From Candidatus Microgenomatus sp. (GTDB lineage: Bacteria > Patescibacteriota > Microgenomatia > UBA8517), in assembly GCA_020724585.1 (NCBI GenBank), contig DYGS01000001.1, positions 559,027-623,026 of the forward strand: a stretch of DNA of 64,000 bases, in the 5' to 3' direction. The notes beneath the pieces were generated by a model that saw nothing but the letters and a program-made list of their open reading frames with translations, was not told where the DNA came from and ran no database searches. Of the stretch, positions 28,985-45,729 are shown piece by piece (the first letter of the stretch is position 1; every line of letters starts with the position of its first letter). The position numbers were made by a program, and so were the translations under genes.

Positions 28985-29095
28985 TTACGCCCTTTGTTAA
29001 CTAGGGCTATTTTTTTGCTAAAACAAGCGCAAAACAGGATTTCGCTTTTTTTGTGTGAGATATATAGCCATTTTGTTTTGAAAATGCTATATAAT
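28985..29095 (+). repeat. partial copy of the MITE-like repeat (core GCTTTTTTTGTGTGAGATATATAGCCATTTTGTTTTGA); here it forms the upstream region of the tRNA genes
   Basis: Aligned by eye to 4190-4240. Confidence 0.5.
29086..29095 (+). promoter_or_regulatory. extended -10 promoter element TGcTATATAAT for the tRNA-Thr/tRNA-Tyr transcript
   Basis: TGn + TATATA/TATAAT ending ~10 nt before the tRNA 5' end (29106). Confidence 0.35.
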
Positions 29096-29105
29096 ATGTA
29101 AACTC

Positions 29106-29178
29106 GCCGGGGTAGCTCAGTGGTAGAGCAATGCTTTTGTAAAGCATGGGTCGAAGGTTCAAATCCTTTCCTCGGCTC
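29106..29178 (+). tRNA. tRNA-Thr (anticodon UGU)
   Basis: Cloverleaf folded by hand: acceptor GCCGGGG/CCTCGGC, D arm GCTC..GAGC, anticodon stem ATGCT/AGCAT with loop TTTGTAA, T arm GAAGG TTCAAAT CCTTT. Confidence 0.8.
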
Positions 29179-29204
29179 AAAAATACGGCATTTTTTACAC
29201 ATTA

Positions 29205-29287
29205 GCCAAGGTGGCGGAGTGGTCAATCGCACCTGTCTGTAGAACAGGCGACGCAAGTCTACCTAGGTTCGAATCCTAGCCTTGGCA
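29205..29287 (+). tRNA. tRNA-Tyr (anticodon GUA), class II with long variable arm
   Basis: Acceptor GCCAAGG/CCTTGGC, anticodon stem CCTGT/ACAGG with loop CTGTAGA, long variable arm, T arm TAGGT TCGAATC CTAGC. Confidence 0.8.
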
Positions 29288-29350
29288 CTCGCCTTGCTCG
29301 TGCTCGCGACTATGATTCGATGATGCACGGGAATTTCATACTATGCATGG

Positions 29351-29365
29351 CGAATCCTAGCCTTG
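29351..29365 (+). repeat. 15-nt duplicate of the tRNA-Tyr 3' end (CGAATCCTAGCCTTG) 64 nt downstream of the tRNA
   Basis: Identical to 29270-29284; abuts GC-rich repeat copy A. Confidence 0.7.
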
Positions 29366-29366
29366 T

Positions 29367-29517
29367 CAGTGCTGTGGTACGAAAAAATTCGAAATCAATA
29401 TGCGAAAGCGTATTGATTGTTATTTTCCGATATTTCAAATCGTTTTAGCTCGTCCCGCCAAGCGGGACTCGCTTCCCGCTCCGGCTCGGCCTATTGGCCT
29501 CGCCTTCGCAAAGTGCT
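29367..29517 (+). repeat. GC-rich palindromic dispersed repeat, copy A (~150 nt; contains hairpin GTCCCGC-caa-GCGGGAC)
   Basis: Near-identical inverted copy at 32431-32574; shorter copies at 41848-41935 and 45648-45729. Confidence 0.8.
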
Positions 29518-29670
29518 GGCTCGAATCCTTTTTATGTTTTTAAAATGCAAAAATTTTTCGATTTTGGGAAACCAAAATCGTCGCGTTATATTTTTAGCTT
29601 ATTCCGTGAAGTAATAAGTTCAAGTAGAAAAATATTTCACTTAAACTAAAAGTGATAAAATACCTGCATA

Positions 29671-30174
29671 ATGATTAAAATAATTACCAATACGGTCTTG
29701 GTTTTAGGAAAAAAGCTTATATCAAAAGGGGTTCGTGGCAGTTTAATTTTTAACTTCTCTGTCTTAGCCATAATCTTTTTGTTACTACATTTACTTTTAC
29801 CACCAAATTTAATTAATGACCTTTCGGATAATTTTAATAAAGTTGCGATTGGTATTGCAGCTTTGATAACTGCTTATTTCGGTAGTTCGTATTTTAGGGA
29901 GGAATTGTCGCGTAAGAAAAATATTGAACACTACCGAGCAAAATATCCGCCCAATGTTCATGGAACAAAGTATAGAATTATCGAAAGTGTAAACCAGCCT
30001 GGAGCGATTTATTTACACGACTTGGAAACCCTACACAAACACCACATTTGGAATATGAAGACTGTTTATGATTTAGGGTGGCAAGCATTCGAAAGGGTTA
30101 AACTACCAAGCCAAGACTTCGATTCAATTTTAATTGGTGATCCGATAAGAACTCGTGGAGAACTTGGAGAGTAA
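29671..30174 (+). CDS. hypothetical membrane protein
   Basis: 167-aa ORF with N-terminal TM helices; inside the inverted-repeat-flanked cassette. Confidence 0.4.
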   Translation: MIKIITNTVLVLGKKLISKGVRGSLIFNFSVLAIIFLLLHLLLPPNLINDLSDNFNKVAIGIAALITAYFGSSYFREELSRKKNIEHYRAKYPPNVHGTKYRIIESVNQPGAIYLHDLETLHKHHIWNMKTVYDLGWQAFERVKLPSQDFDSILIGDPIRTRGELGE

Positions 30175-30198
30175 TAAAATTGGAGAAACAGTAAGCCA

Positions 30199-30705
30199 TT
30201 AACCCAATTTTTCTTGTTGAGGAAGTGAATAAAATCTTGGTGTATAAACTTTGACTTCAGCTACATCATTAACTCTAATTATTCCTGATCTATACACTAC
30301 TCCAACTAGACCTCTTAAACCCATTGCATGTTTGTAAAAATCCCCTGGTCTTACATGTTCGTATACTTTTTGAATTTCTTTTCCTGGTCCTGAACAAGGT
30401 TTATTTTCTTCTTCAACCAATAAAATTGCATCGTCTGGGAATCTTAATATTGTCCCTCTAGGTAAACTTGTAAAATTCGAGATACCTTCAAAGTTTATAT
30501 TTGCTCCTAAAAGATCAGCTGTTATTGATCCTGTTTCTAAATTAACTGCAATTTTATCTAATTCTTCCTGTGATACTGCAGTCCATTGCCTCCAATTTCT
30601 AACCTCAATCTTTTTTGGAAATTCCTTATCATTTAACCATTCACGATCTCTAACATCAGAGAGCTTACCTTGACCTGAATATTTATTTCCAACAATACCA
30701 CTCAA
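30199..30705 (-). CDS. MOSC-domain protein (YiiM-like)
   Basis: GANINFEGIS...GTILRFPDDAILLVEEENKPCSGPG matches the MOSC pattern GENL..G......G..LRIG.A.LEVT.PR.PC. Confidence 0.55.
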   Translation of the reverse strand: MSGIVGNKYSGQGKLSDVRDREWLNDKEFPKKIEVRNWRQWTAVSQEELDKIAVNLETGSITADLLGANINFEGISNFTSLPRGTILRFPDDAILLVEEENKPCSGPGKEIQKVYEHVRPGDFYKHAMGLRGLVGVVYRSGIIRVNDVAEVKVYTPRFYSLPQQEKLG

Positions 30706-30824
30706 ATCAACAACTAGTTCTGCAACTGGTATTGTTACTGAAGATTAATATCACCTGTGTTATAAAGTCCTGTAACTTTTCCATTTAGTTCTGCGCTCAT
30801 AATGGGGATATTCTACCAATTTAG

Positions 30825-31355
30825 TTATAGGATTGCAAAAGCACGAATTGGAGATCCATCACCATCTTTAATTTTAAGCGGGACACCATAAAACATAAAC
30901 TCTTTGTTTTCAGGTAGCTTGTCCATGTTTATTAAATCCGTAATTGTTAGTATTCCAGATTGTAATAATTTTCTTTCTAGCTCAACATCAAGTTCTGCAG
31001 TATTACCCACAACTACAAATAATGGATTAGCTTCTTTTAATTTTTCAAATAAACTTAAATCCAATTTTCCTTCTTTAAACGCAAGGCCAATATTTTTTGG
31101 AAATTCTGAGTTGATGTCCACCAAAACTGTTTTGCCAATATATTTTTCAAGAGGAATATTATCAATTGTTTCACCCTTTTCATCCATGTGAGCAAAGGCA
31201 TCTGCATGAGTTCCAATATGTGTAGACATTTGTAAATATCTTAATCTCCAACCCTCTTTGTCTAAATCGTGAATTTGCTTAATGTGGACTTCAGGATCAC
31301 CCGGGTATACTGGCATCCCATCAAAAAGTGGTTGGGACAAATCAATTACTTGCAT
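30825..31355 (-). CDS. cyclase-family protein (kynurenine formamidase-like)
   Basis: HxGTHxDxPxH motif STHIGTHADAFAH. Confidence 0.75.
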   Translation of the reverse strand: MQVIDLSQPLFDGMPVYPGDPEVHIKQIHDLDKEGWRLRYLQMSTHIGTHADAFAHMDEKGETIDNIPLEKYIGKTVLVDINSEFPKNIGLAFKEGKLDLSLFEKLKEANPLFVVVGNTAELDVELERKLLQSGILTITDLINMDKLPENKEFMFYGVPLKIKDGDGSPIRAFAIL

Positions 31356-31436
31356 AAGGTTATTTTAACATAAAAATACTTAAGAACTCTCCACATTATT
31401 GCTTTTTGTGGAGAGTTCTCACAACGACGGGTTTGG

Positions 31437-31850
31437 TTACAGGAACATGCCGAGGATGATTCCAAGCGCAACTTGCTTGAAGATGTAATATTGGCTGAGG
31501 CCAATAAATTCATAATCATCCAAACGATAGTTCACATCATGCTGACTGAAGTAGAAACCTACCGCGTATCCAAGACCTGTGACAAGCCACTTCACCGGAT
31601 CGATGAGGCTTTGCAGGTATGCATGCGCGAGCAAGAAACTGACGACAGTTGCAAGAACGCTGAACCATGTCCATAAACCAACCTTGACTGTCCAATCATC
31701 GTCGCGTGCAAACTTGTATTTGCGGAAGATGATTTTGTATGGACCTACCAAGAGGTATTTCCACACAATGAAGATGGGCCACAAAAATGCTTCAACCCAA
31801 TCTTCACGACTATTGCCTTTCTTAACTTGTGTTGTCATTTGATCCTCCAA
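31437..31850 (-). CDS. hypothetical membrane protein in a locally GC-rich (~45%) segment
   Basis: 137-aa ORF, 3 predicted TM helices, Trp-rich; composition differs sharply from flanks. Confidence 0.45.
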   Translation of the reverse strand: MEDQMTTQVKKGNSREDWVEAFLWPIFIVWKYLLVGPYKIIFRKYKFARDDDWTVKVGLWTWFSVLATVVSFLLAHAYLQSLIDPVKWLVTGLGYAVGFYFSQHDVNYRLDDYEFIGLSQYYIFKQVALGIILGMFL

Positions 31851-32400
31851 TTGATCTTGACAGGTGTGCTAATAAGCCAGACGCTTACTATGGGAGGTAG
31901 TATATCAGTCTGTTAGATAGTAACGCAACTTTTGGAGTGTTACTCTTTCTGCCCATTCACATGGCGTAAGCCACCACCCTTGTAGCTTTGGGGTGTTTTG
32001 TGTTGGGCAGGATTCCCTGTTAAGGGAATATTTCAGGAGCAATAGTTTTGTCTGTTCTGCCTTCTAACCAAGTGCTGTGCCGAAGGCACTTTGGAGTTGT
32101 TTTATAGCACTTGGGTAGTTGCCCTCTAGGGCAAATTGCGACTGAAATTGTAATTGCGGTACCGCAACCGCAATCCGTTAGCCGTAATGCGGCTACCTGG
32201 CCGTATCTACGGCCAGTTTACGGACTGCGTGAGGTACTTGACGGTTACCCGTCAAACCCCGTTATGGGTATTTACTGTGTTTGTGTTATGGCTATATTCA
32301 AGATCGTTTGAATTTATTCAAATGTGAATTGAACATAGACATATGATTTTTAGGATAAAAATCATATAATATCACTGCAAAGCAGTGAAATTTGGCTCGC
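31851..32400. other. ~550-nt GC-enriched non-coding region packed with short perfect hairpins; possible structured RNA or replication/recombination site
   Basis: No ORF >65 aa. Hairpins include TTGCGGTACCGCAA, GGCCGTATCTACGGCC, GACGGTTACCCGTC, TCCCTGTTAAGGGA, GTGCCGAAGGCAC. Confidence 0.3.
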
Positions 32401-32430
32401 AAGCCAAATTTAAAATCGCGTCTTTGAAAC

Positions 32431-32574
32431 AAGCGGAGGCGAGGCCAAAGGCCGAGCCGGAGCGAGAAGCGAGTCCCGCTTGGCGGGACGAGCTAATACG
32501 ATTTGAAATATCGGAAAATAACAATCAATACGCTCTCGCATATTGATTTCGAATTTTTTCGTACCACAGCACTG
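32431..32574 (-). repeat. GC-rich palindromic dispersed repeat, copy B (inverted relative to copy A)
   Basis: Reverse complement matches 29367-29517 with a handful of mismatches. Confidence 0.8.
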
Positions 32575-32605
32575 AGTAGGACATTGGCAAAAATTAGATA
32601 GCTCA

Positions 32606-33172
32606 TTACCTAATAATTGTTTCGAGTAATTCAGGAAATTTTTCTGTTTTCATTTCTTCATAAATAAAATGTCCTTTATCTTTAAACTTGTGGACCTCAA
32701 TATCTGGCAACACTTTTAATATTAAATCAACTGATTTATATATATCTTCATCATCGTCTTCTGATACAAATAAATGTATTTCTTTTATTCTGTTTTTTAA
32801 TTCTGAATCGATTTCAAATTCAAAAAAGTCTGTTGTTTTAACTCTGTCAGGATCAAGCCATGGAGCAACTAATATTAGTTTATCAATTTGTTTTTTGTTT
32901 TCTGTTAACCATCTAAGCAGAAATCCACCACCACAACTATAACCAACTAAAATAGATTCTTCGTTGATGTCAAATCTTTCAAATTCCTTTTTCCATTTTT
33001 TATAATCAGGTTTATATGCATCTGGCATTTCAGGAGTTTGTGTAAAAGTACCTTTAATTAATAATTGTTTTTGAAGCCAAGGAAACCAGTGGCTGTTAGA
33101 AAGTGACGGATACAAATCACTAAAATATTCTTCTTCCTCACAACTTCCATGAATAAGTATTGCTGTTTTCAT
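32606..33172 (-). CDS. RBBP9/YdeN-like alpha/beta serine hydrolase
   Basis: ILIHGS start, HWFPWL, nucleophile elbow GYSCGG, LVAPW. Confidence 0.65.
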   Translation of the reverse strand: MKTAILIHGSCEEEEYFSDLYPSLSNSHWFPWLQKQLLIKGTFTQTPEMPDAYKPDYKKWKKEFERFDINEESILVGYSCGGGFLLRWLTENKKQIDKLILVAPWLDPDRVKTTDFFEFEIDSELKNRIKEIHLFVSEDDDEDIYKSVDLILKVLPDIEVHKFKDKGHFIYEEMKTEKFPELLETIIR

Positions 33173-33233
33173 ATCAGTCTCTATTTTATCATCTTTTAAA
33201 ACAATTAATTCTATAATGATTTAAAATATAGAT

Positions 33234-34115
33234 ATGATAAAAAGTATTGCATATTCACAAAACTTATTAGTTGATGACGAATTGATCGAAAAACTTGTTT
33301 CACTTTCGAATATTGACCAAAACGATACTGTTTTAGAAATTGGAGCAGGTAAAGGAATAATAACTAAAGAACTTTTAAAAAAGGCAGGTTGTGTTGTGGT
33401 TTTTGAAATTGATGAGGAATTTGTCAGTATTCTTAAATCAATTTCTGATAATAAACTTGTAGTTAAAAACGGAAACTTCTTAGATTTTGATTTGCCAAAA
33501 GACAAGTATAAAGTTTTTGCAAACATACCATTTAATAAAACTTCTGAAATTATAAAAAGATTATTGTTTTCTAATAATCCTCCAACTAATACATATTTAG
33601 TTATTCAAAAAGAAGCAGTTGGGAGGTTTGCTGGAAAACCATTTGATAGCAAAAACGGTTTGCTTTCAGTTCTTTTTAATCCATGGTTTGAATTTGAAGT
33701 TACATATAAATTTAACAGAACAGATTTTAAACCAATACCGAATGTTGATACAGTTTTGTTAAATATTAAATTAAGAAGTACCCCAAAAGTTTTAGATCAA
33801 GACAAAGAAGCATATAGAGATTTTGTAGTTTTTGGATTTAACCAAATGGCTCCAAACATACTTGAAGGGTTATCAAAAGTTATTAATAAAAATCATATTA
33901 TAAAATTATTCAACAAACTAAACATTTCAACTGACTTAAAACCAACTGAATTAGATAAAGATATTTGGATTGAAATTTTTGAATTACTTAAATATCAAAA
34001 ACAAAACAAAAGAAACTTAATCAAAAACTCATATATTAAATGGGTTAAACAACAAGAAAATATGGAAAAAATAAATAGGACTAGGGTTGATACAGATTGG
34101 AAAAAGTTTAAATAA
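33234..34115 (+). CDS. Erm/KsgA-family rRNA adenine N6-methyltransferase (Erm-like)
   Basis: YSQNLLVDDELIEKLV, LEIGAGKGIITKEL (motif I), NIPFNKTSEII (NIPY motif). Resembles ErmC along the full length including the C-terminal domain. Confidence 0.7.
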   Translation: MIKSIAYSQNLLVDDELIEKLVSLSNIDQNDTVLEIGAGKGIITKELLKKAGCVVVFEIDEEFVSILKSISDNKLVVKNGNFLDFDLPKDKYKVFANIPFNKTSEIIKRLLFSNNPPTNTYLVIQKEAVGRFAGKPFDSKNGLLSVLFNPWFEFEVTYKFNRTDFKPIPNVDTVLLNIKLRSTPKVLDQDKEAYRDFVVFGFNQMAPNILEGLSKVINKNHIIKLFNKLNISTDLKPTELDKDIWIEIFELLKYQKQNKRNLIKNSYIKWVKQQENMEKINRTRVDTDWKKFK

Positions 34116-34182
34116 TCCCCATTCCAAGTGCTGTGCGTTAGCATATTGTACTAATTCTAAAAAAAAGATTATACTAAAGTAA

Positions 34183-34932
34183 GTGAATAAACTTGTTCTT
34201 ACAGTAGTTTTGATTCTGGGGATATTGATAGGTGGATATTTTTTGATAATACGCCTAAAAGATAGTAGTAAACCCAATCCGCCTATTAAGATTTTACAAC
34301 CATCACAGAAAGTTAGTTTTGAAACACCTAAAAAGGCCGCTCATTATGAAAGCAGTACTCCGTCTCATGGTGCAGTTTTAGCTATACCGCCTATTAATAT
34401 TGCAATTAATTTTAATTTTGATCTTGCTGATGCTTCAACTATTTCTATTACCGCAAACAAAAAGGAGTATGGAATTGACAAAACTACTGTCGATGATAAT
34501 AAACTCACATTAAGACGAAGTTTTGACCCGACAGCACCTGACGGAATTTATACAGTTTTATATAACGCCTGTTGGCCGAATGGAAGTTGCCATGACGGTA
34601 AATTCCAATTTGCAATAGATAGATCTAAGCTAAACGATGCTGTCGATATGCGAAACCAAAAAGTTGTGAATATTGATCTGTCTGGATCAACATTTATACC
34701 TAAAGATATTAGAATTAGCCAAGGAACACAAGTGATTTGGACAAATAGTGACAATGTCATTCACTATGTCAACACCGATTCACATCCTGCTCACTCGTAC
34801 TTTAAAGATCAGAATTCAAAAGCACTTAAAAAGAATGATGTCTATTCTTTAACATTTAATAACGAAGGTACATACCCCTATCATTGCAGTGCACATGCAG
34901 ATAATATGGTGGGTACTATAATTGTCGAATGA
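34183..34932 (+). CDS. membrane-anchored copper-binding protein: CopC-like domain fused to a type-1 cupredoxin domain
   Basis: N-terminal TM. H-x-G CopC-like start (HGAVLAIPP). C-terminal blue-copper ligand pattern HYVNTDSHPAH...YPYHCSAHADNMVGTIIV (H, C, H, M). Confidence 0.55.
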   Translation: MNKLVLTVVLILGILIGGYFLIIRLKDSSKPNPPIKILQPSQKVSFETPKKAAHYESSTPSHGAVLAIPPINIAINFNFDLADASTISITANKKEYGIDKTTVDDNKLTLRRSFDPTAPDGIYTVLYNACWPNGSCHDGKFQFAIDRSKLNDAVDMRNQKVVNIDLSGSTFIPKDIRISQGTQVIWTNSDNVIHYVNTDSHPAHSYFKDQNSKALKKNDVYSLTFNNEGTYPYHCSAHADNMVGTIIVE

Positions 34933-34935
34933 TAT

Positions 34936-36279: not shown

Positions 36280-36352
36280 AAAATATATTGCCTAGATAGC
36301 TCAGTTGGTAGAGCATTCCCATGGTAAGGGAAAGGTCTCGAGTTCAAATCTC
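36280..36352 (+). tRNA. tRNA-Thr (anticodon GGU)
   Basis: Acceptor GCCTAGA/TCTAGGC, D arm GCTC..GAGC, anticodon stem TTCCC/GGGAA with loop ATGGTAA, T arm TCGAG TTCAAAT CTCGA. Confidence 0.8.
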
Positions 36353-36375
36353 GATCTAGGCTCAAACTAATTTTC

Positions 36376-37572
36376 TTAAAATTCTTTTTTAAAATTGTTC
36401 AAAATCGCCTCCGCTAGTGCACTCGACAAAACGGTTGGAACAGCGTTTCCAACCTGTAGATTTCTATCCTGTCTTGATCCATAAAACTTATATGAATCTG
36501 GAAAACACTGTATTCTTGCTCCCTCTCTTGTAGTTAACGGTCTTGGTGCTTTAGGATGAATACACCTAGACGATGATGGTGTTCCTAAATTTCTGGTAAT
36601 CGTGGTTGAAGGTCTATTCCACCAAAGACGGCAATAGGTATTTTTAAAACCTGAGGATGGGCGTAAATCTTCAGGCAAATCCTTAGGTGTCCCACCGTCT
36701 GGCAATAACTCCATGATTTTTACAAGCTTTGGATTATTTCTAGGTGCATTATGGTCCATTAATTTTATCGGGGCGTTTATTCTCATTTTTCTTTGAAATT
36801 CATTTTTAGGCCCTGAAGCATATTCAAAACTCTCTTCGCCCGATTTTATAAAGGGAAGGTCACTAATAGCATCCTCAAGTGTCAAATAAGGTTTTAGCAA
36901 CCCATCAAATAATAATTGTGTATTCGATGGGTCATAATGTGTAGGCTCAGGATATTTGAAGTCACGATTAAGTTTCGACCCAATAATTACCACCCGCTCC
37001 CTTATTTGAGGTGCGCCAAAATCAGCCGCGTTAAGAACTTTATACCACACCTTGTAGCCTAATGACCGAAAAAGTGTGAGTATCGTCATTAGTAGTTCTC
37101 CGCGTTGCATTGAAAGCAATCCTTTTACATTTTCAAATAGAAAAACTCTTGGATTAAACTCACGCAGAACTCTGTAATATTCCTGGAATAGCTTACCTCT
37201 CGGATCATCTATTAGTCTTTTACCAACAGTTGAGTAAGCTTGGCATGGCGGACCACCAATCACAATATCTACCTCATTATCATAAACTCCCAAATCTTTC
37301 TTTATTTTATCAAAGTTAAAGTATTTAATATCTTCCGTATAGACTCTTACTGTTGGGTGATTTAATGAATAGGCTTTTGCCATGTTAGGCAATATTTCAT
37401 TAGCGGCAATTATTTCAAACTGTTCACAATTCGAAAAACCATAACTCAATCCGCCTACCCCACAAAATAGATCTATAACTTTAAGTTTTTTAGCCATAGT
37501 TCTAATCAAATTCAATTTCTTTATATTTAATTGGTGGTTCTGTAATTTTCCAAACAAAATAGTTTTGGTCAA
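36376..37572 (-). CDS. dcm: DNA (cytosine-5)-methyltransferase (type II R-M methylase)
   Basis: Motif I DLFCGVGG, motif IV GGPPCQAYS, motif VI ENV, motif VIII QRR. Likely true start at internal Met (MAKKLKVIDLF, ~37497), which gives a small overlap with the upstream gene. Confidence 0.85.
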   Translation of the reverse strand: MTKTILFGKLQNHQLNIKKLNLIRTMAKKLKVIDLFCGVGGLSYGFSNCEQFEIIAANEILPNMAKAYSLNHPTVRVYTEDIKYFNFDKIKKDLGVYDNEVDIVIGGPPCQAYSTVGKRLIDDPRGKLFQEYYRVLREFNPRVFLFENVKGLLSMQRGELLMTILTLFRSLGYKVWYKVLNAADFGAPQIRERVVIIGSKLNRDFKYPEPTHYDPSNTQLLFDGLLKPYLTLEDAISDLPFIKSGEESFEYASGPKNEFQRKMRINAPIKLMDHNAPRNNPKLVKIMELLPDGGTPKDLPEDLRPSSGFKNTYCRLWWNRPSTTITRNLGTPSSSRCIHPKAPRPLTTREGARIQCFPDSYKFYGSRQDRNLQVGNAVPTVLSSALAEAILNNFKKEF

Positions 37573-38278
37573 TATTAAAAACTGTCTGACCCTCCATTTG
37601 CTGCCTTGTTATCCAATTAATATTATTTTCAGATATTTGATTTAATTTTAAGAAGGCTGTCTGCCCATTATATAAATCTATATGAATTAAAATTGTCTCG
37701 ATACCCTCTAGTTCAAAAGCCTTTTTTGCTTCCAATACTTTGTGTTGTTTAATATCGTTTATTCCGCTAAAACCAGACTGCATTTCCACCTTTACTCTTT
37801 TATTATTTTCAAATTTTATTTCTAAATCAGCCTTTGGAGTTTTTTTGAACGAATTTATTTTCCTTAAGTCATCACTCCCTACTGGTTTAATTTTAGTTTT
37901 ATCAACCTCAAATATTAAACTTAGTGCTTTTGTGAAGTAATTTGAAATTACAAATCCTCTCATCCACGAAAAATAAACCTGTTCTGGTCGTCTTCCCAGA
38001 TTATTTAATCTGGGCAATATATTATTCTTTTTTATGATATCAAACGGTTCATCAATATACTTTCGACCAAACGAATTTAGATTATCGACTTTAATTTGGT
38101 CTGCAACGACAAAACTGAGATTCTTGATAATTTGGTAAAGGCGTTCATTGAGTAATTTGATATAATCAAAATCAATAGCAGGAACAACATCTTTAGCACT
38201 CAAAAAATTTTTAAAATTAGTTTGACTACTAAAGCCAAATTTTTGACGGTATTGTTTAAAATCTTCAGCGGCAAACAT
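37502..38278 (-). CDS. putative cognate type II restriction endonuclease
   Basis: 258-aa ORF immediately upstream of and overlapping the C5-methyltransferase in the same orientation. No family assignment is possible from sequence alone. Confidence 0.45.
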   Translation of the reverse strand: MFAAEDFKQYRQKFGFSSQTNFKNFLSAKDVVPAIDFDYIKLLNERLYQIIKNLSFVVADQIKVDNLNSFGRKYIDEPFDIIKKNNILPRLNNLGRRPEQVYFSWMRGFVISNYFTKALSLIFEVDKTKIKPVGSDDLRKINSFKKTPKADLEIKFENNKRVKVEMQSGFSGINDIKQHKVLEAKKAFELEGIETILIHIDLYNGQTAFLKLNQISENNINWITRQQMEGQTVFNIDQNYFVWKITEPPIKYKEIEFD

Positions 38279-40020: not shown

Positions 40021-40111
40021 GGGTGTCGTTCAATGGTAAGCAGAGCTTGGCCATTGAACTAGTTAGATGTTCAATGGTAAACAGAGCTTGGCCATTGAAC
40101 TAGTTAGATGA
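40021..40111 (+). repeat. tandem duplication of the tRNA-Trp 5' segment: [GGGTGTC][GTTCAATGGTAA(G/A)CAGAGCTTGGCCATTGAACTAGTTAGAT] x2; each unit forms an 8-bp-stem hairpin TTCAATGG...CCATTGAA
   Basis: 40021-40038 identical to tRNA positions 40114-40131; unit repeated at 40028 and 40069. Confidence 0.8.
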
Positions 40112-40182
40112 AAGGGTGTCGTTCAATGGTAGGACATCGGTCTCCAAAACCGATAATGATAGTTCGATTCTATCCACCCTTG
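40112..40182 (+). tRNA. tRNA-Trp (anticodon CCA)
   Basis: Acceptor AAGGGTG/CACCCTT, D arm GTTC..GGAC, anticodon stem TCGGT/ACCGA with loop CTCCAAA, T arm GATAG TTCGATT CTATC, discriminator G. Confidence 0.75.
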
Positions 40183-40433
40183 CAAGAAAAGAAACACGCT
40201 CGGACAGGGTCGCCCCTGCCGGCGGGCGACCAAACAAAAAGAGCGAATTGAAGCCATTTTTGAGTACTGGTTTGAGGTGGCGGTTCTCCAAAAAGAAGTT
40301 CGATCCGGCGTTTTTTGCATGATTGGCTAAATCATGCAAATTATTTTTTGCGCGCGCGATTTTTGCCCCTGTTTTCGCGATTTTGATAAGTTCTAAAAGA
40401 GGTTCGAGTCTCCTTCCACCATTTTGATTAAAT

Positions 40434-41747
40434 TTAGACTTTTGGAGAGCAAATCTTTTGTTTTTCTTCAAAAATTTCATTCTTCTTTTTCTTGTAAACT
40501 TCAGGCTCAACAATATGCTCCAAATATCCATCAAGTAAGGTTTCCTCTTGATCCTCAAGATTTGAAATTTTTGATTGCAATTCTATTAATCTTTGAGAAG
40601 CAGATTGCTCTTCAATCAGTTTGTCTTTCTCATATAGATCCATGAATATTTTATATTCCTCGTCATCTATAGAGCATTTTAAGACCATGTTTCTAATCTG
40701 CTTCTCAAGTTCTACATCTGTTATGTATTTCTGTCTACAGTTCCCTAAACTTTTTGTGCATCTATAATAATTAAAAACAACTTTCCTGTTGGTTCTTTTG
40801 TAATATCTAGGATGGGTTTCAGCTGTAATAGCCGAACCACACTCAGCACACTTTATAAAACCGGTAAAAGGAAAGTTGTGTCCTTTAAGTCTCGGTCTTG
40901 CTAGTCTCTCCATTTGCTTTTGGACTTTGTTGAAAAGGTCTTTTGAAATGAAAGTTTTATGTGATCCTTTATACAAAACTCCGTTGTACAAAAACGTACC
41001 AACGTAAAATTTATTAGATAGCATATTTTTGACAGTATCAACTTTTAATTCCCTTTCACCTTTTCTATATATTCCACACTTAAATAACATTCTGGCAATT
41101 TCAGAATATGAAGTACCACCTTCTGCAAATTTTTCAAAAGCCTTTTTAACATATTTGGATTTTTCATCATCTACTTCAATTGATTTAATTTTCAAATCGT
41201 TGAAATATCCAATAGGAGCAAGTTTTGGCCAAACACCACGCCTTAGTTTTTCACGCAATCCTCGCTTTACATTTTCGCTTAAATTGTCAACATAATACTT
41301 GCTCTGTCCAAATGCGATTGAAAGCATAAACTTACCCTGTGGAGTATTATCAAACCAAAAAGTTGGGAACTTCAAGTCTAAAAGTTTGCCGGTATCTAAT
41401 AAATAAACAATTCTTCCGCCATCTATTGAATTTCTGGCAAGTCTATCTGGATGCCAAGAAAGAATTGCATTAGCTTCTCCTTTTTCAATTCTTTTTAAGA
41501 CCTCGGCAAACTTTTCTCTTCCAGGTTCTTTTGCGGTTTTACTTTCAGTTACAAAATCAATGACTTGAAGTTTTTCCCTTGAAGCAAACTCTTTTAATTC
41601 AGATAACTGTCCGTCAATAGACAACACCTGTCTATCTTTTTCATCAGTTGATTTTCGGCAATAACAAATGTATTTAATCATGTGGACAGAGTTCTCCTGT
41701 TTTCTAAAATTTTCGAGTTTTGTTTTTCTTCTTTTTTGTTTTGGCAA
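40434..41747 (-). CDS. large serine recombinase (phage-integrase/transposase type)
   Basis: N-terminal resolvase domain with catalytic Ser in YCRKSTDEK. Central recombinase domain. Zn-ribbon CAECGSAI...YYRCTKSLGNC. C-terminal coiled coil. Confidence 0.85.
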   Translation of the reverse strand: MPKQKRRKTKLENFRKQENSVHMIKYICYCRKSTDEKDRQVLSIDGQLSELKEFASREKLQVIDFVTESKTAKEPGREKFAEVLKRIEKGEANAILSWHPDRLARNSIDGGRIVYLLDTGKLLDLKFPTFWFDNTPQGKFMLSIAFGQSKYYVDNLSENVKRGLREKLRRGVWPKLAPIGYFNDLKIKSIEVDDEKSKYVKKAFEKFAEGGTSYSEIARMLFKCGIYRKGERELKVDTVKNMLSNKFYVGTFLYNGVLYKGSHKTFISKDLFNKVQKQMERLARPRLKGHNFPFTGFIKCAECGSAITAETHPRYYKRTNRKVVFNYYRCTKSLGNCRQKYITDVELEKQIRNMVLKCSIDDEEYKIFMDLYEKDKLIEEQSASQRLIELQSKISNLEDQEETLLDGYLEHIVEPEVYKKKKNEIFEEKQKICSPKV

Positions 41748-41847
41748 CTAAAACCAGAGTTAAAATTGCCCTTCAATCTGGTCTTTTCTGCAAGTGGCCG
41801 AATTCGGGCGGCCACGAAGCGAGAACGAATTTCCCTGTGGGCAGACT

Positions 41848-41935
41848 TGTACCGAAAAACTCGTACCGCTCTATTGTCGTAGCTCCGGCTCGTCACTTCG
41901 TTCCTCGCCTCCGCAAACGCCGGATCGAATTGTCC
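41848..41935 (+). repeat. GC-rich dispersed repeat, shortened copy D
   Basis: ...GTACCGAAAAACTCG...CCGGCTCG...CTCGCCTCCGCAAA...GGATCGAAT aligned to copy A. Confidence 0.5.
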
Positions 41936-45647: not shown

Positions 45648-45729
45648 AGCGGAGGCGAGGCCAAAGGCCGAGCCGGAGCGGAAGGTTCGGGTTATTCGAA
45701 TTGAGTTCGAATTTTTCGATACAACATTG
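45648..45729 (-). repeat. GC-rich dispersed repeat, internally deleted copy C
   Basis: AGCGGAGGCGAGGCCAAAGGCCGAGCCGGAGCG identical to copy B; flanking palindrome GTCAGGCTAACGCCTGAC. Confidence 0.6.

Follow-up and report, generated by a model that had tools for sequence, protein, structure and literature searches.

A cargo cassette with paired inverted end-modules at a tRNA-Tyr gene of Candidatus Microgenomatus: a probable member of a serine-recombinase family that inserts at tRNA 3' ends

The subject of this study is a 2.9-kb cassette in a 64,000-nucleotide stretch of DNA from Candidatus Microgenomatus sp. (contig DYGS01000001.1, positions 559,027 to 623,026), referred to here as the window. 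The window is AT-rich (about 34% G+C) and lies within a metagenome contig of 644 kb (JGI 3300029893 Ga0246236_1000003). The cassette lies downstream of a tRNA-Tyr gene and is enclosed by two arms of about 149 nucleotides (nt), A (29361-29509, plus strand) and B (32433-32580, minus strand), which are 93–96% identical. In our reading, to which we assign a probability of about 0.7, these arms are the paired end-modules of a cargo cassette belonging to a large serine recombinase (LSR) integrative family of Microgenomates, in the candidate phyla radiation (CPR), that inserts at tRNA 3' ends. The original prediction for this DNA was of near-identical inverted repeats of about 150 nt bracketing a cassette, and this was borne out: positions 29361-29492 and 32449-32580 form an inverted repeat of 132 nt with 96% complementarity, continued by 29494-29509 and 32433-32448, and a global comparison of arm A with arm B gave 142/152 identities. 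An inverted repeat of this length cannot have arisen by chance in 64 kb. The arm limits first proposed (29367-29517 and 32431-32574) were a few bases off; homology begins at about 29361-29366 and 32575-32580 and stops exactly after ..TTCGC and ..TCCGC (29509 and 32433), the sequences diverging further in. The hairpins named in the prediction exist (GTCCCGCCAAGCGGGAC at 29452-29468 and GGCC-loop-GGCC within the core, 29477-29509), as do the four genes inside the arms, which encode a 167-amino-acid (aa) protein without a Pfam match, a MOSC protein, a cyclase, and a 133-aa protein without a Pfam match (Table 1). Also as predicted, analysis of open reading frames (ORFs) and Pfam domains over 29351-32580 revealed no recombinase or transposase between the arms, and the noncoding region 31851-32432 folded far better than shuffled sequences (z −11 and −9).

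The GC-rich core of the arms was converted to a search pattern, CGCTCCGGCTCGGCC-N3-5-GGCCTCGCC, and scanned over the JGI/ENA metagenome collection. The scan returned 68 loci (related loci carry L numbers below), 65 in contigs of 32–43% G+C and 3 in high-GC actinobacterial contigs; the latter were discarded as chance matches. By the pattern alone, 10 loci had an exact plus/minus pair of cores. Alignment of the matches showed that the core is nearly always the inner end of a unit of 80–150 nt, whose outer boundary is sharp (GTGCAC.., TGAGCTG.., TGCAATG.., or AGTGCTG..) and whose inner boundary, equally sharp, ends in ..TCCGC. A profile of this unit detected convergent pairs in 20 loci, 80–100% identical within a locus (median about 97%) and enclosing 720–9345 nt. 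The cargo was unlike between loci and comprised methyltransferase-, NUDIX-, and cytidylyltransferase-like proteins, small Cys-rich proteins, and others, as judged from ORF translations without Pfam. Paired units diverge past the inner boundary: type-2 units have the tail AAAAGYYGGMTCGAAY, and type-1 units have a T-rich run followed by a hairpin. What is conserved in the units as sequence is the block GAAAAWTTCGAAC and a 32-nt core, with the core 55–115 nt from the junction; in some type-2 partner units, GGCCGAAGCC in the 3' arm makes the core hairpin nearly perfect. Arms A and B belong to the AGTGCTGTGGTACG subfamily (L036, L017, L071, and L041), and the long version of the unit, with two extra hairpins, is common to them and L041 at 88–90% identity.

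These related loci were found by exact core match, so that the sample is biased toward carriers of the exact core; several of them are one population sampled repeatedly, and locus counts therefore overstate the number of independent events. Among species-representative genomes, low-GC core matches were found in Candidatus Woesebacteria (three) and Candidatus Shapirobacteria; a further match was in one contig labelled Gammaproteobacteria. Homologues of the M50 peptidase in the window were named Woesebacteria or Microgenomates. The core pattern had no match in IMG/VR, and a link to phages is thus not evident. The searches revealed a family that is dispersed and restricted to accessory DNA, as first proposed from copies within the window; in the loci retrieved, units were not spread at the ends of ordinary operons.

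Complete elements in this collection had a recurrent order: tRNA gene, LSR gene with its own inverted repeat, unit, cargo, and inverted unit. In about 25 loci the LSR gene lay about 150 nt outside a type-2 unit and read away from it, and in 13 of these a tRNA gene was located about 250 nt past the LSR stop codon. The target tRNAs seen were Gly-CCC, Gly-TCC, Tyr, Trp, Ser-GGA, Glu-CTC, Leu-GAG, and Leu-TAG. It was the type-2 tail that faced the LSR gene in the roughly 25 loci, the sole exception being L061, which had a type-1 tail there. The inverted repeat bracketing the LSR gene, called IRa, was 54–115 nt long and 84–100% identical at 17 of the 24 LSR copies examined. In aligned loci, one copy of IRa starts exactly at the tRNA 3' end and the other exactly at the unit tip, and a perfect inverted pair of 14–17 nt (M/M') lies just inside the repeat. 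A complete element thus has three junctions with half-sites in common: S1, between tRNA and IRa; S2, between IRa' and unit; and S3, between unit and outside flank, the flank being again IRa-like in some loci. The LSR protein is distantly related at best to any solved LSR.

Several other features were seen around the LSR genes. A T-loop-like motif, YGGMTCGAAY, occurs 8–9 nt past the terminal GC of the core in LSR-proximal units (in the window at 29510-29528 and at 41915-41932 with 40299-40313, and in all canonical loci); an inverted, 100%-identical copy lies between IRa and the LSR stop codon, and the motif may be a further site. The LSR 3' flank resembles a collapsed unit-unit palindrome. In L043 (877-1343) and L066 (1173-1633), the LSR gene is cut after about codon 121, leaving only the catalytic domain, and is fused to a divergent distal-type unit. 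Because the junction is identical in both, the fusion represents one inherited event, and its interpretation as a recurrent target was rejected.

The geometry of the junctions connects the units with their tRNA targets. S1 was aligned with the reverse complement of S2 in 12 loci, and geometry was measured in 15. The junction bases common to tRNA and unit co-varied with the target tRNA: GCAC for Leu, Tyr, and Glu; GCTC for Gly; CCGC for Ser; and TTGC for Trp. The distance from the GTTCNA T-loop motif to the junction was 18 nt in the tRNA and 22–23 nt in the unit in 13/13 measurable cases. With the conserved GC as the centre, TTCGAAC falls at about +12 to +18 in the tRNA and about +16 to +23 in the unit; in the window, TTCGAA lies at +16 to +21 from the GC (29371-29372) in unit A and at +12 to +17 in tRNA-Tyr. 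In serine integrases, the zinc-ribbon-domain motif is located at 16–24 in attP half-sites and at 11–19 in attB half-sites, a shift of 5 bp (PMC3783163). By that rule the unit tip has attP-type geometry, because its motif is 4–5 bp further from the junction than that in the tRNA; a distal motif common to both arms is moved about 5 bp outward in the unit. From this geometry we infer that the unit tip is an attP-type arm and that the tRNA T-arm and acceptor end constitute the attB arm. A sigma-70-like promoter was sought by eye in the unit tip and dismissed, the −10-like hexamer not being conserved across subfamilies.

Relatives of the window at the same chromosomal site were found through the M50 peptidase gene upstream of the tRNA pair. 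The tRNA-Tyr site was empty in L092 and L090, where tRNA-Tyr is directly followed by the p144 and PGA_cap genes. L089 and L091 have canonical LSR elements of a different subfamily at this site, L019 has an LSR element there, and in L041 the site is occupied by an LSR-less remnant, the type-1 unit of which abuts the p144 homologue. Empty and occupied sites thus differ by site-specific insertions with sharp boundaries. The cassette is not conserved in all relatives, and its absence from L090 and L092 upholds the proposal that the repeats mark the ends of a block inserted at a tRNA gene. Relative to L092, window positions 29289-34935 are an insertion that contains the cassette and genes for a hydrolase, RrnaAD, and cupredoxin. 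These genes (32606-34932; a serine hydrolase, an Erm/KsgA-like rRNA adenine dimethylase of the RrnaAD family, and a CopC-cupredoxin) are absent from L092, and the tRNA-Tyr island therefore reaches to about 34935, past arm B. Between tRNA-Thr(TGT) and tRNA-Tyr, an ORF of about 260 aa was seen in L089 (10948-11742), L090 (10952-11731), and L091 (10946-11719), with a LAGLIDADG_3 match in L089; it is absent in the window and L092, where the two tRNA genes are 26 nt apart.

Rearrangements among the relatives had their ends at the same junctions or motifs. L049 and L076 are 99.3% identical over 1.95 kb of cargo and type-1 unit in different surroundings, and the homology ends exactly after ..CAGTGCAC (GTGCAC). 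In L017 and L030, compared with L036 from the same lake study, the flanks are 99.7–100% identical, a 1535-nt LSR module is inverted, and the type-2 unit is lost between two direct M copies; the L017 and L036 forms occur together in Lake Tanganyika samples (Ga0194110-113 and Ga0194126). In L041 and L076, the LSR is missing between two copies of the AAAATGYAAAAATTT motif that are direct only in the flipped state. A sister population of the window organism was represented by Logan contig L002 (SRR5011275), which matches window 29366-32025 (2.6 kb) except at 29406 and 29448. At these two positions its arm A has the arm-B bases, and the 2.5-kb interior is identical. The arms thus exchange sequence, and the pattern indicates gene conversion or reciprocal exchange between them. 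All Logan contigs of sister populations end 30 nt into the arms, a k-mer effect, so that the orientation of the cassette is not readable from them.

On this basis, we read the window cassette as an LSR-less, mosaic, and non-autonomous member of the family, with a tRNA-Tyr 3' fragment joined to unit A on the left and unit B joined to an IRa remnant on the right. Its mosaic character is seen in the cyclase, which is 89% identical to a cargo protein of L020; in the structured region, which it has in common with tRNA-Trp-type elements (L020, L025, and L067); and in the units and type-1 tail, which are of the L036 type. The cassette is bounded by the recombination-site repeats of autonomous relatives (the L036/L071/L041 subfamily); the LSR encoded in about 25 related loci is lacking in the cassette itself. 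Of the three roles originally offered for the repeats (recombination sites, miniature inverted-repeat transposable elements [MITEs], and terminators or insulators), recombination sites is the best. The predicted duplicate of the tRNA-Tyr 3' end is real (17/18 positions, 15 exact), but it is not the simple attR scar that it was taken for, because serine recombinases make no long duplications, because it is only 63 nt from the intact tRNA, and because its neighbour is a unit of the LSR-proximal type, beside which the recombinase module is located in complete elements. The same layout was found in L049, where the left junction ..CCCTCGGCAC/TGTATATTCG joins a tRNA-Leu-like 3' fragment to a type-2 unit; this looks like the product expected of a GCAC crossover between S1 and S2. 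The corresponding junction in the window is ..CCTAGCCTTG/TCAGTGCTG, that is, CCTTG/TCAGTGC.

The following mechanism would account for these arrangements. The outer 25 or so nt of the unit would serve as an attP-type half-site that imitates the T-loop and acceptor end of the tRNA (GTTCGAA and the junction bases), and the LSR would cut and rejoin the DNA at S1, S2, and S3, at or near the conserved GC dinucleotide. Recombination of S1 with S3 would integrate and excise the whole element at the tRNA. Since S1 and S2 are inverted copies with IRa in common, recombination between them would produce the flips of the LSR module seen in relatives. A palindromic GC crossover would deprive the sites of polarity, so that the S1/S2 pair could also delete the LSR module and leave a tRNA-unit junction such as that in L049. 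The window cassette could now move only with a cognate LSR supplied in trans. The action of the LSR on the junctions, the crossover position, and mobility at the present day are all inferred from sequence comparison. A bolder version, which we advance tentatively and consider somewhat doubtful, is that of a modular platform, in which the recombinase gene forms one module and the cargo another, each bounded by repeats of its own, and half-sites mimicking the tRNA T-arm join the two; with a palindromic GC crossover, one enzyme would integrate, excise, flip its own gene, and swap cargo, as a natural parallel to recombinase-mediated cassette exchange, and the GC core would dock a host or element factor that controls these choices.

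A number of observations weigh against our reading of the cassette. No LSR lies between or beside arms A and B, and the sole LSR in the window is of another subfamily. The left junction of the cassette is better matched by a microhomology of 5 nt (CCTTG) shared by the tRNA end and the IRa' end than by a GC crossover; loss of the LSR module from the window cassette is therefore likely, but not as a clean event. The spacer of about 62 nt before the tRNA fragment (29289-29350) is left unexplained, and a BLAST comparison of it with all fetched loci gave no match. The arms are far longer than a half-site of about 25 bp, and the reading assigns no role to their strongly conserved core. Conservation of the core is in part by construction, because the loci were retrieved through it; L089 and L091, which were found independently of the core, have a different GC-rich segment in its position. 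Finally, because the IRa arms lack the T-loop motif and have a GAGTG-like motif of their own (by eye), attP and attB cannot be assigned unambiguously.

Some of the same evidence can be arranged differently. The LSR gene with IRa could be a minimal element of about 1.5 kb, similar to an insertion sequence (IS), that lands between T-loop-bearing arms (tRNA-unit or unit-unit); the unit-bounded cassettes would then be a separate, non-autonomous element with the unit-unit palindrome as its attP, and junction A would be an unoccupied landing site, not a deletion product. IRa is indeed always joined to a T-loop-bearing arm (tRNA or unit), LSR modules also occur just outside type-1 units in L032, L038, and L012, the window and L049 have LSR-free junctions of a tRNA fragment with a unit, and a symmetric unit-unit attP satisfies the usual pseudo-dyad symmetry better than unit-IRa does. 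However, every LSR module seen adjoins a unit-bounded cassette or its remnant, the unit-unit junction predicted for the circle or attP was seen in none of the loci, and the spacing in the unit is attP-type rather than attB-type and a poor fit for a target arm; we consider such a pair of elements unlikely. Under either arrangement, the arms would be recombination-site modules of an LSR system and the cassette non-autonomous. It is less probable still that the 2.9-kb block is simply an invertible segment, flipped as a phase-variation switch by site-specific or homologous recombination between the arms, so that different genes would be turned toward promoters outside it. Near-identical inverted repeats, the arm exchange in the sister population, the LSR-module flips in relatives, and the type-1 tail beside the LSR in L061, as expected after a cassette flip, are all in keeping with inversion; but the type-2 tail is beside the LSR in about 25 loci with that one exception, the window cassette was seen in one orientation only (the short-read contigs end at the repeats), and no common function is there to be switched, since different loci have unrelated cargo.

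The units could also act in RNA and take no part in DNA recombination; they would then be terminators, insulators, or small RNA elements that were duplicated to flank accessory genes on both sides. The T-run after the core in type-1 units (B and D), the GNRA and UUCG loops on the inward strand of long versions, and the folding of the 160-nt arm, which is better than that of shuffled sequences (z −5.3 and −3.7), point in that direction. The core itself, at −13 to −17 kcal/mol, is no more stable than shuffles (z −0.9 to −2.1), and its mismatched positions, in two internal loops, are invariant; type-2 units, including arm A, have no T-run; and T-loop mimicry, co-variation with the tRNA, and the end of homology at the unit tip would be left unexplained. 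A consensus fold of 36 short units contained only a 4-bp GGCC hairpin and one 2-bp helix (6 invariant pairs) with no covariation, and the minimal unit was dropped as a candidate structured RNA. A terminator scan called only the AT-rich hairpin at 29393-29418 and 32523-32548, the core hairpin not qualifying as an intrinsic terminator. Because the unit is conserved as sequence, does not covary, and has a core no more stable than shuffles, a plain terminator is unlikely, and the pure terminator or insulator role first suggested is unsupported; as an account of the arms we rate it very improbable. The type-1 T-run and the GNRA/UUCG loops could still give the units a secondary insulating role. With Rfam 15, only tRNAs reached the gathering score in the whole window, and nothing credible was found at E<=5 in 29000-33000. 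Least probable of all, and in our judgment barely worth retaining, is a MITE-like or composite transposon, in which the arms would be terminal inverted repeats acted on by a DDE transposase whose gene is located elsewhere. In its favour are the dispersed nature of the family and the position of passenger genes between long inverted repeats, but there is no target-site duplication at 29361-29366 and 32575-32580, a transposase is associated with 0 of about 65 loci while an LSR is associated with about 25, insertions occur solely at tRNA 3' ends, and the cargo is variable as well as large; MITE status, too, is thus unsupported. An integron cassette does not fit, the units being paired, inverted, conserved in sequence, and accompanied by a serine recombinase, in contrast to integrons with their single direct attC, constant in structure but variable in sequence, and their tyrosine recombinase IntI.

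Coordinates of the features of the cassette and of a second element in the window, located at tRNA-Trp, are given in Table 1. The IRa pair of the second element is decayed, and we read the element as a decaying, LSR-bearing member of the family. Both shorter repeat copies mentioned in the original prediction belong to it: copy D is a bona fide short unit (nhmmer E 7e-20), and copy C is a unit too, but a degenerate one, recognizable only in alignment with relatives. The suspected link between the repeats and the serine recombinase is real and extends through the family, but the LSR at 40437-41681 is of the tRNA-Trp subfamily, that of units C and D. LSRs of the arm A/B subfamily are only about 55% identical to it, and by sequence it is not the cognate enzyme of arms A and B. 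Directly upstream of tRNA-Trp (40028-40110), a 41-nt sequence is present in two tandem copies, 97% identical, each of which holds the hairpin GTTCAATGG..CCATTGAAC.

Table 1. Positions of features of the cassette at tRNA-Tyr and of the second element at tRNA-Trp (numbering of the window)
Feature	Position	Strand	Remarks
tRNA-Tyr(GTA)	29205..29288	+	ARAGORN and Rfam; putative integration target; T-loop and 3' end form the proposed attB-type arm
Spacer, about 62 nt, intact tRNA-Tyr to tRNA 3' fragment	29289..29350		No similarity to any fetched locus
tRNA-Tyr 3'-end duplicate	29351..29368	+	15 exact, 17/18; matches 29270-29287; abuts unit A
Unit A	29366..29509	+	Type 2, LSR-proximal kind
Unit A, outer arm (proposed attP type)	GTGC 29369-29372; TTCGAA 29388-29393	+	
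Unit A, inner parts	29393-29418; 29452-29468; 29477-29509		GAAA-loop extra hairpin; GC hairpin; GC core
Type-2 tail	29510..29563	+	M motif AAAGTGCTGGCTCGAATCC, T-loop-like; AAAATGCAAAAATTTTT motif, also upstream of LSR genes
Cargo: 167-aa predicted membrane protein	29671..30174	+	No Pfam match
Cargo: MOSC-domain protein	30199..30705	-	Pfam
Cargo: putative cyclase (PF04199)	30825..31355	-	89%-identical copy is cargo in L020
Cargo: 133-aa hydrophobic protein	31437..31838	-	No Pfam match; no homologue in other loci
Conserved structured element, candidate noncoding RNA	31925..32290	-	Strand tentative; 77–80% identical to L020, L025, L067
Type-1 tail	32291..32432	-	T-rich run, then perfect hairpins; common to L017, L036, L041
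Unit B	32433..32575	-	Type 1, distal kind; inverted copy of unit A; core 32433-32464; GCAC junction 32569-32572
IRa remnant, 25 nt	32573..32597	+	TGAGTAGGACATTGGCAAAAATTAG; just outside unit B; cf. L036/L041 TGACAAGGACA(T/A)TGGCAAAAATTG beside their tRNAs
tRNA-Trp	40112..40183	+	Target of second element
LSR	40437..41681	-	Resolvase, Recombinase, Zn ribbon (Pfam); 88% identical to L025 LSR
Unit C with M tail	41838..41932	+	Degenerate type 2, unit to about 41914; by alignment with L025, L040, L043
Unit D	45649..45728	-	Type 1; closes 3.7-kb cargo: HTH, M78 peptidase, SRPBCC, MFS transporter

Within the structured region of the cassette, positions 31925-32290 are 77–80% identical to segments beside the type-1 unit in L020 (1535-1844), L025 (5872-6182), and L067 (650-982). 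The consensus fold of these four sequences, an element of about 365 nt, contains 90 pairs in 13 helices, including long-range ones; 96.7% of pair cells are paired, compared with 32–44% when the partners are slid, and 6 pairs have compensatory changes. The minus strand is slightly favoured, because G-U pairs (11 cells) outnumber A-C (6) and because UUCG and GUAA loops are formed on the window minus strand. Since the gene that follows it differs between loci, the element is not the leader of one conserved gene. We regard it as a candidate noncoding RNA, one that has no Rfam match.

Elsewhere in the window, a C5 cytosine methyltransferase gene and a gene for a 258-aa partner without a Pfam match (36376-38278, minus strand) lie directly after tRNA-Thr(GGT) (36290-36363). 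The pair is likely to be a type II restriction-modification system, and because L092 and L090 have no such genes there, it represents another tRNA-linked insertion.

To our knowledge, descriptions of mobile elements in CPR bacteria are very few, and the way in which their very small genomes gain accessory genes is poorly understood. The family considered here offers one concrete and recurrent vehicle, located at tRNA genes of Woesebacteria and Shapirobacteria, for genes encoding methyltransferases, NUDIX enzymes, transporters, cyclases, and the like. Its units provide a simple marker of island boundaries for genome annotation in these groups. Because the sites are short and readable and exist in several tRNA-specific versions, new serine integrases whose targets can be predicted might be obtained from the family. 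How direction would be controlled with a palindromic crossover dinucleotide is a testable question raised by the flipping recombinase module and by the nested inverted repeats, which are near-perfect.

A full-text literature search recovered no description of such elements in CPR/Patescibacteria, and the family of serine-recombinase elements at Microgenomates tRNA genes is apparently undescribed so far. It has likenesses to several known systems. In cargo bounded by recombination-site repeats at one specific site, with or without a recombinase, and in side-by-side accumulation, it resembles the staphylococcal cassette SCCmec, the recombinase-less psiSCC of staphylococci, and the cis-mobilizable elements (CIMEs) of streptococci. 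SCC elements insert in rlmH and have short terminal repeats and direct flanking att repeats, and CIMEs are associated with tyrosine integrases. Unlike the Microgenomates family, SCC and CIME are not known to have nested long inverted repeats or T-loop mimicry; conversely, the direct flanking att repeats of psiSCC and CIMEs are not found in the window cassette, whose arms are inverted and whose sole direct repeat is the 15-nt tRNA-Tyr copy. The small invertases Hin, Gin, Cin, and Pin also combine inverted sites with an adjacent serine recombinase and flip a module, as seen in our relatives, but they use 26-bp sites and have fixed cargo, whereas in the Microgenomates family the recombinase gene itself is flipped and the cargo varies.

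The tycheposons of Prochlorococcus are likewise cargo-carrying elements at tRNA genes of a streamlined genome, with tandem arrays, degenerate recombinase-less remnants, and partial tRNAs (bioRxiv 10.1101/2020.12.28.424599). They differ in that 910/937 use tyrosine recombinases and in being flanked by direct partial-tRNA repeats; long inverted end-modules and a repeat-bracketed recombinase gene are not mentioned in the text searched (bioRxiv 10.1101/2020.12.28.424599). Phage-type large serine integrases such as those of Listeria A118/LI have the same Resolvase, Recombinase, and Zn ribbon domains, half-sites of about 25 bp, a distal motif that recurs in element and host arms with a displacement of about 5 bp, and inverted arms at the integrated ends (PMC3783163). 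Compared with these, the Microgenomates family has a tRNA 3'-end target, arms that are 80–150 nt long and contain a conserved GC core, a near-perfect inverted repeat around the recombinase gene, a third, internal junction, and a palindromic candidate crossover (GC). What is distinctive of the family is therefore the targeting of tRNA genes by an LSR through T-arm mimicry, the inverted end-modules of 80–150 nt with their core, the repeat-bracketed recombinase found in both orientations, and the candidate palindromic crossover.

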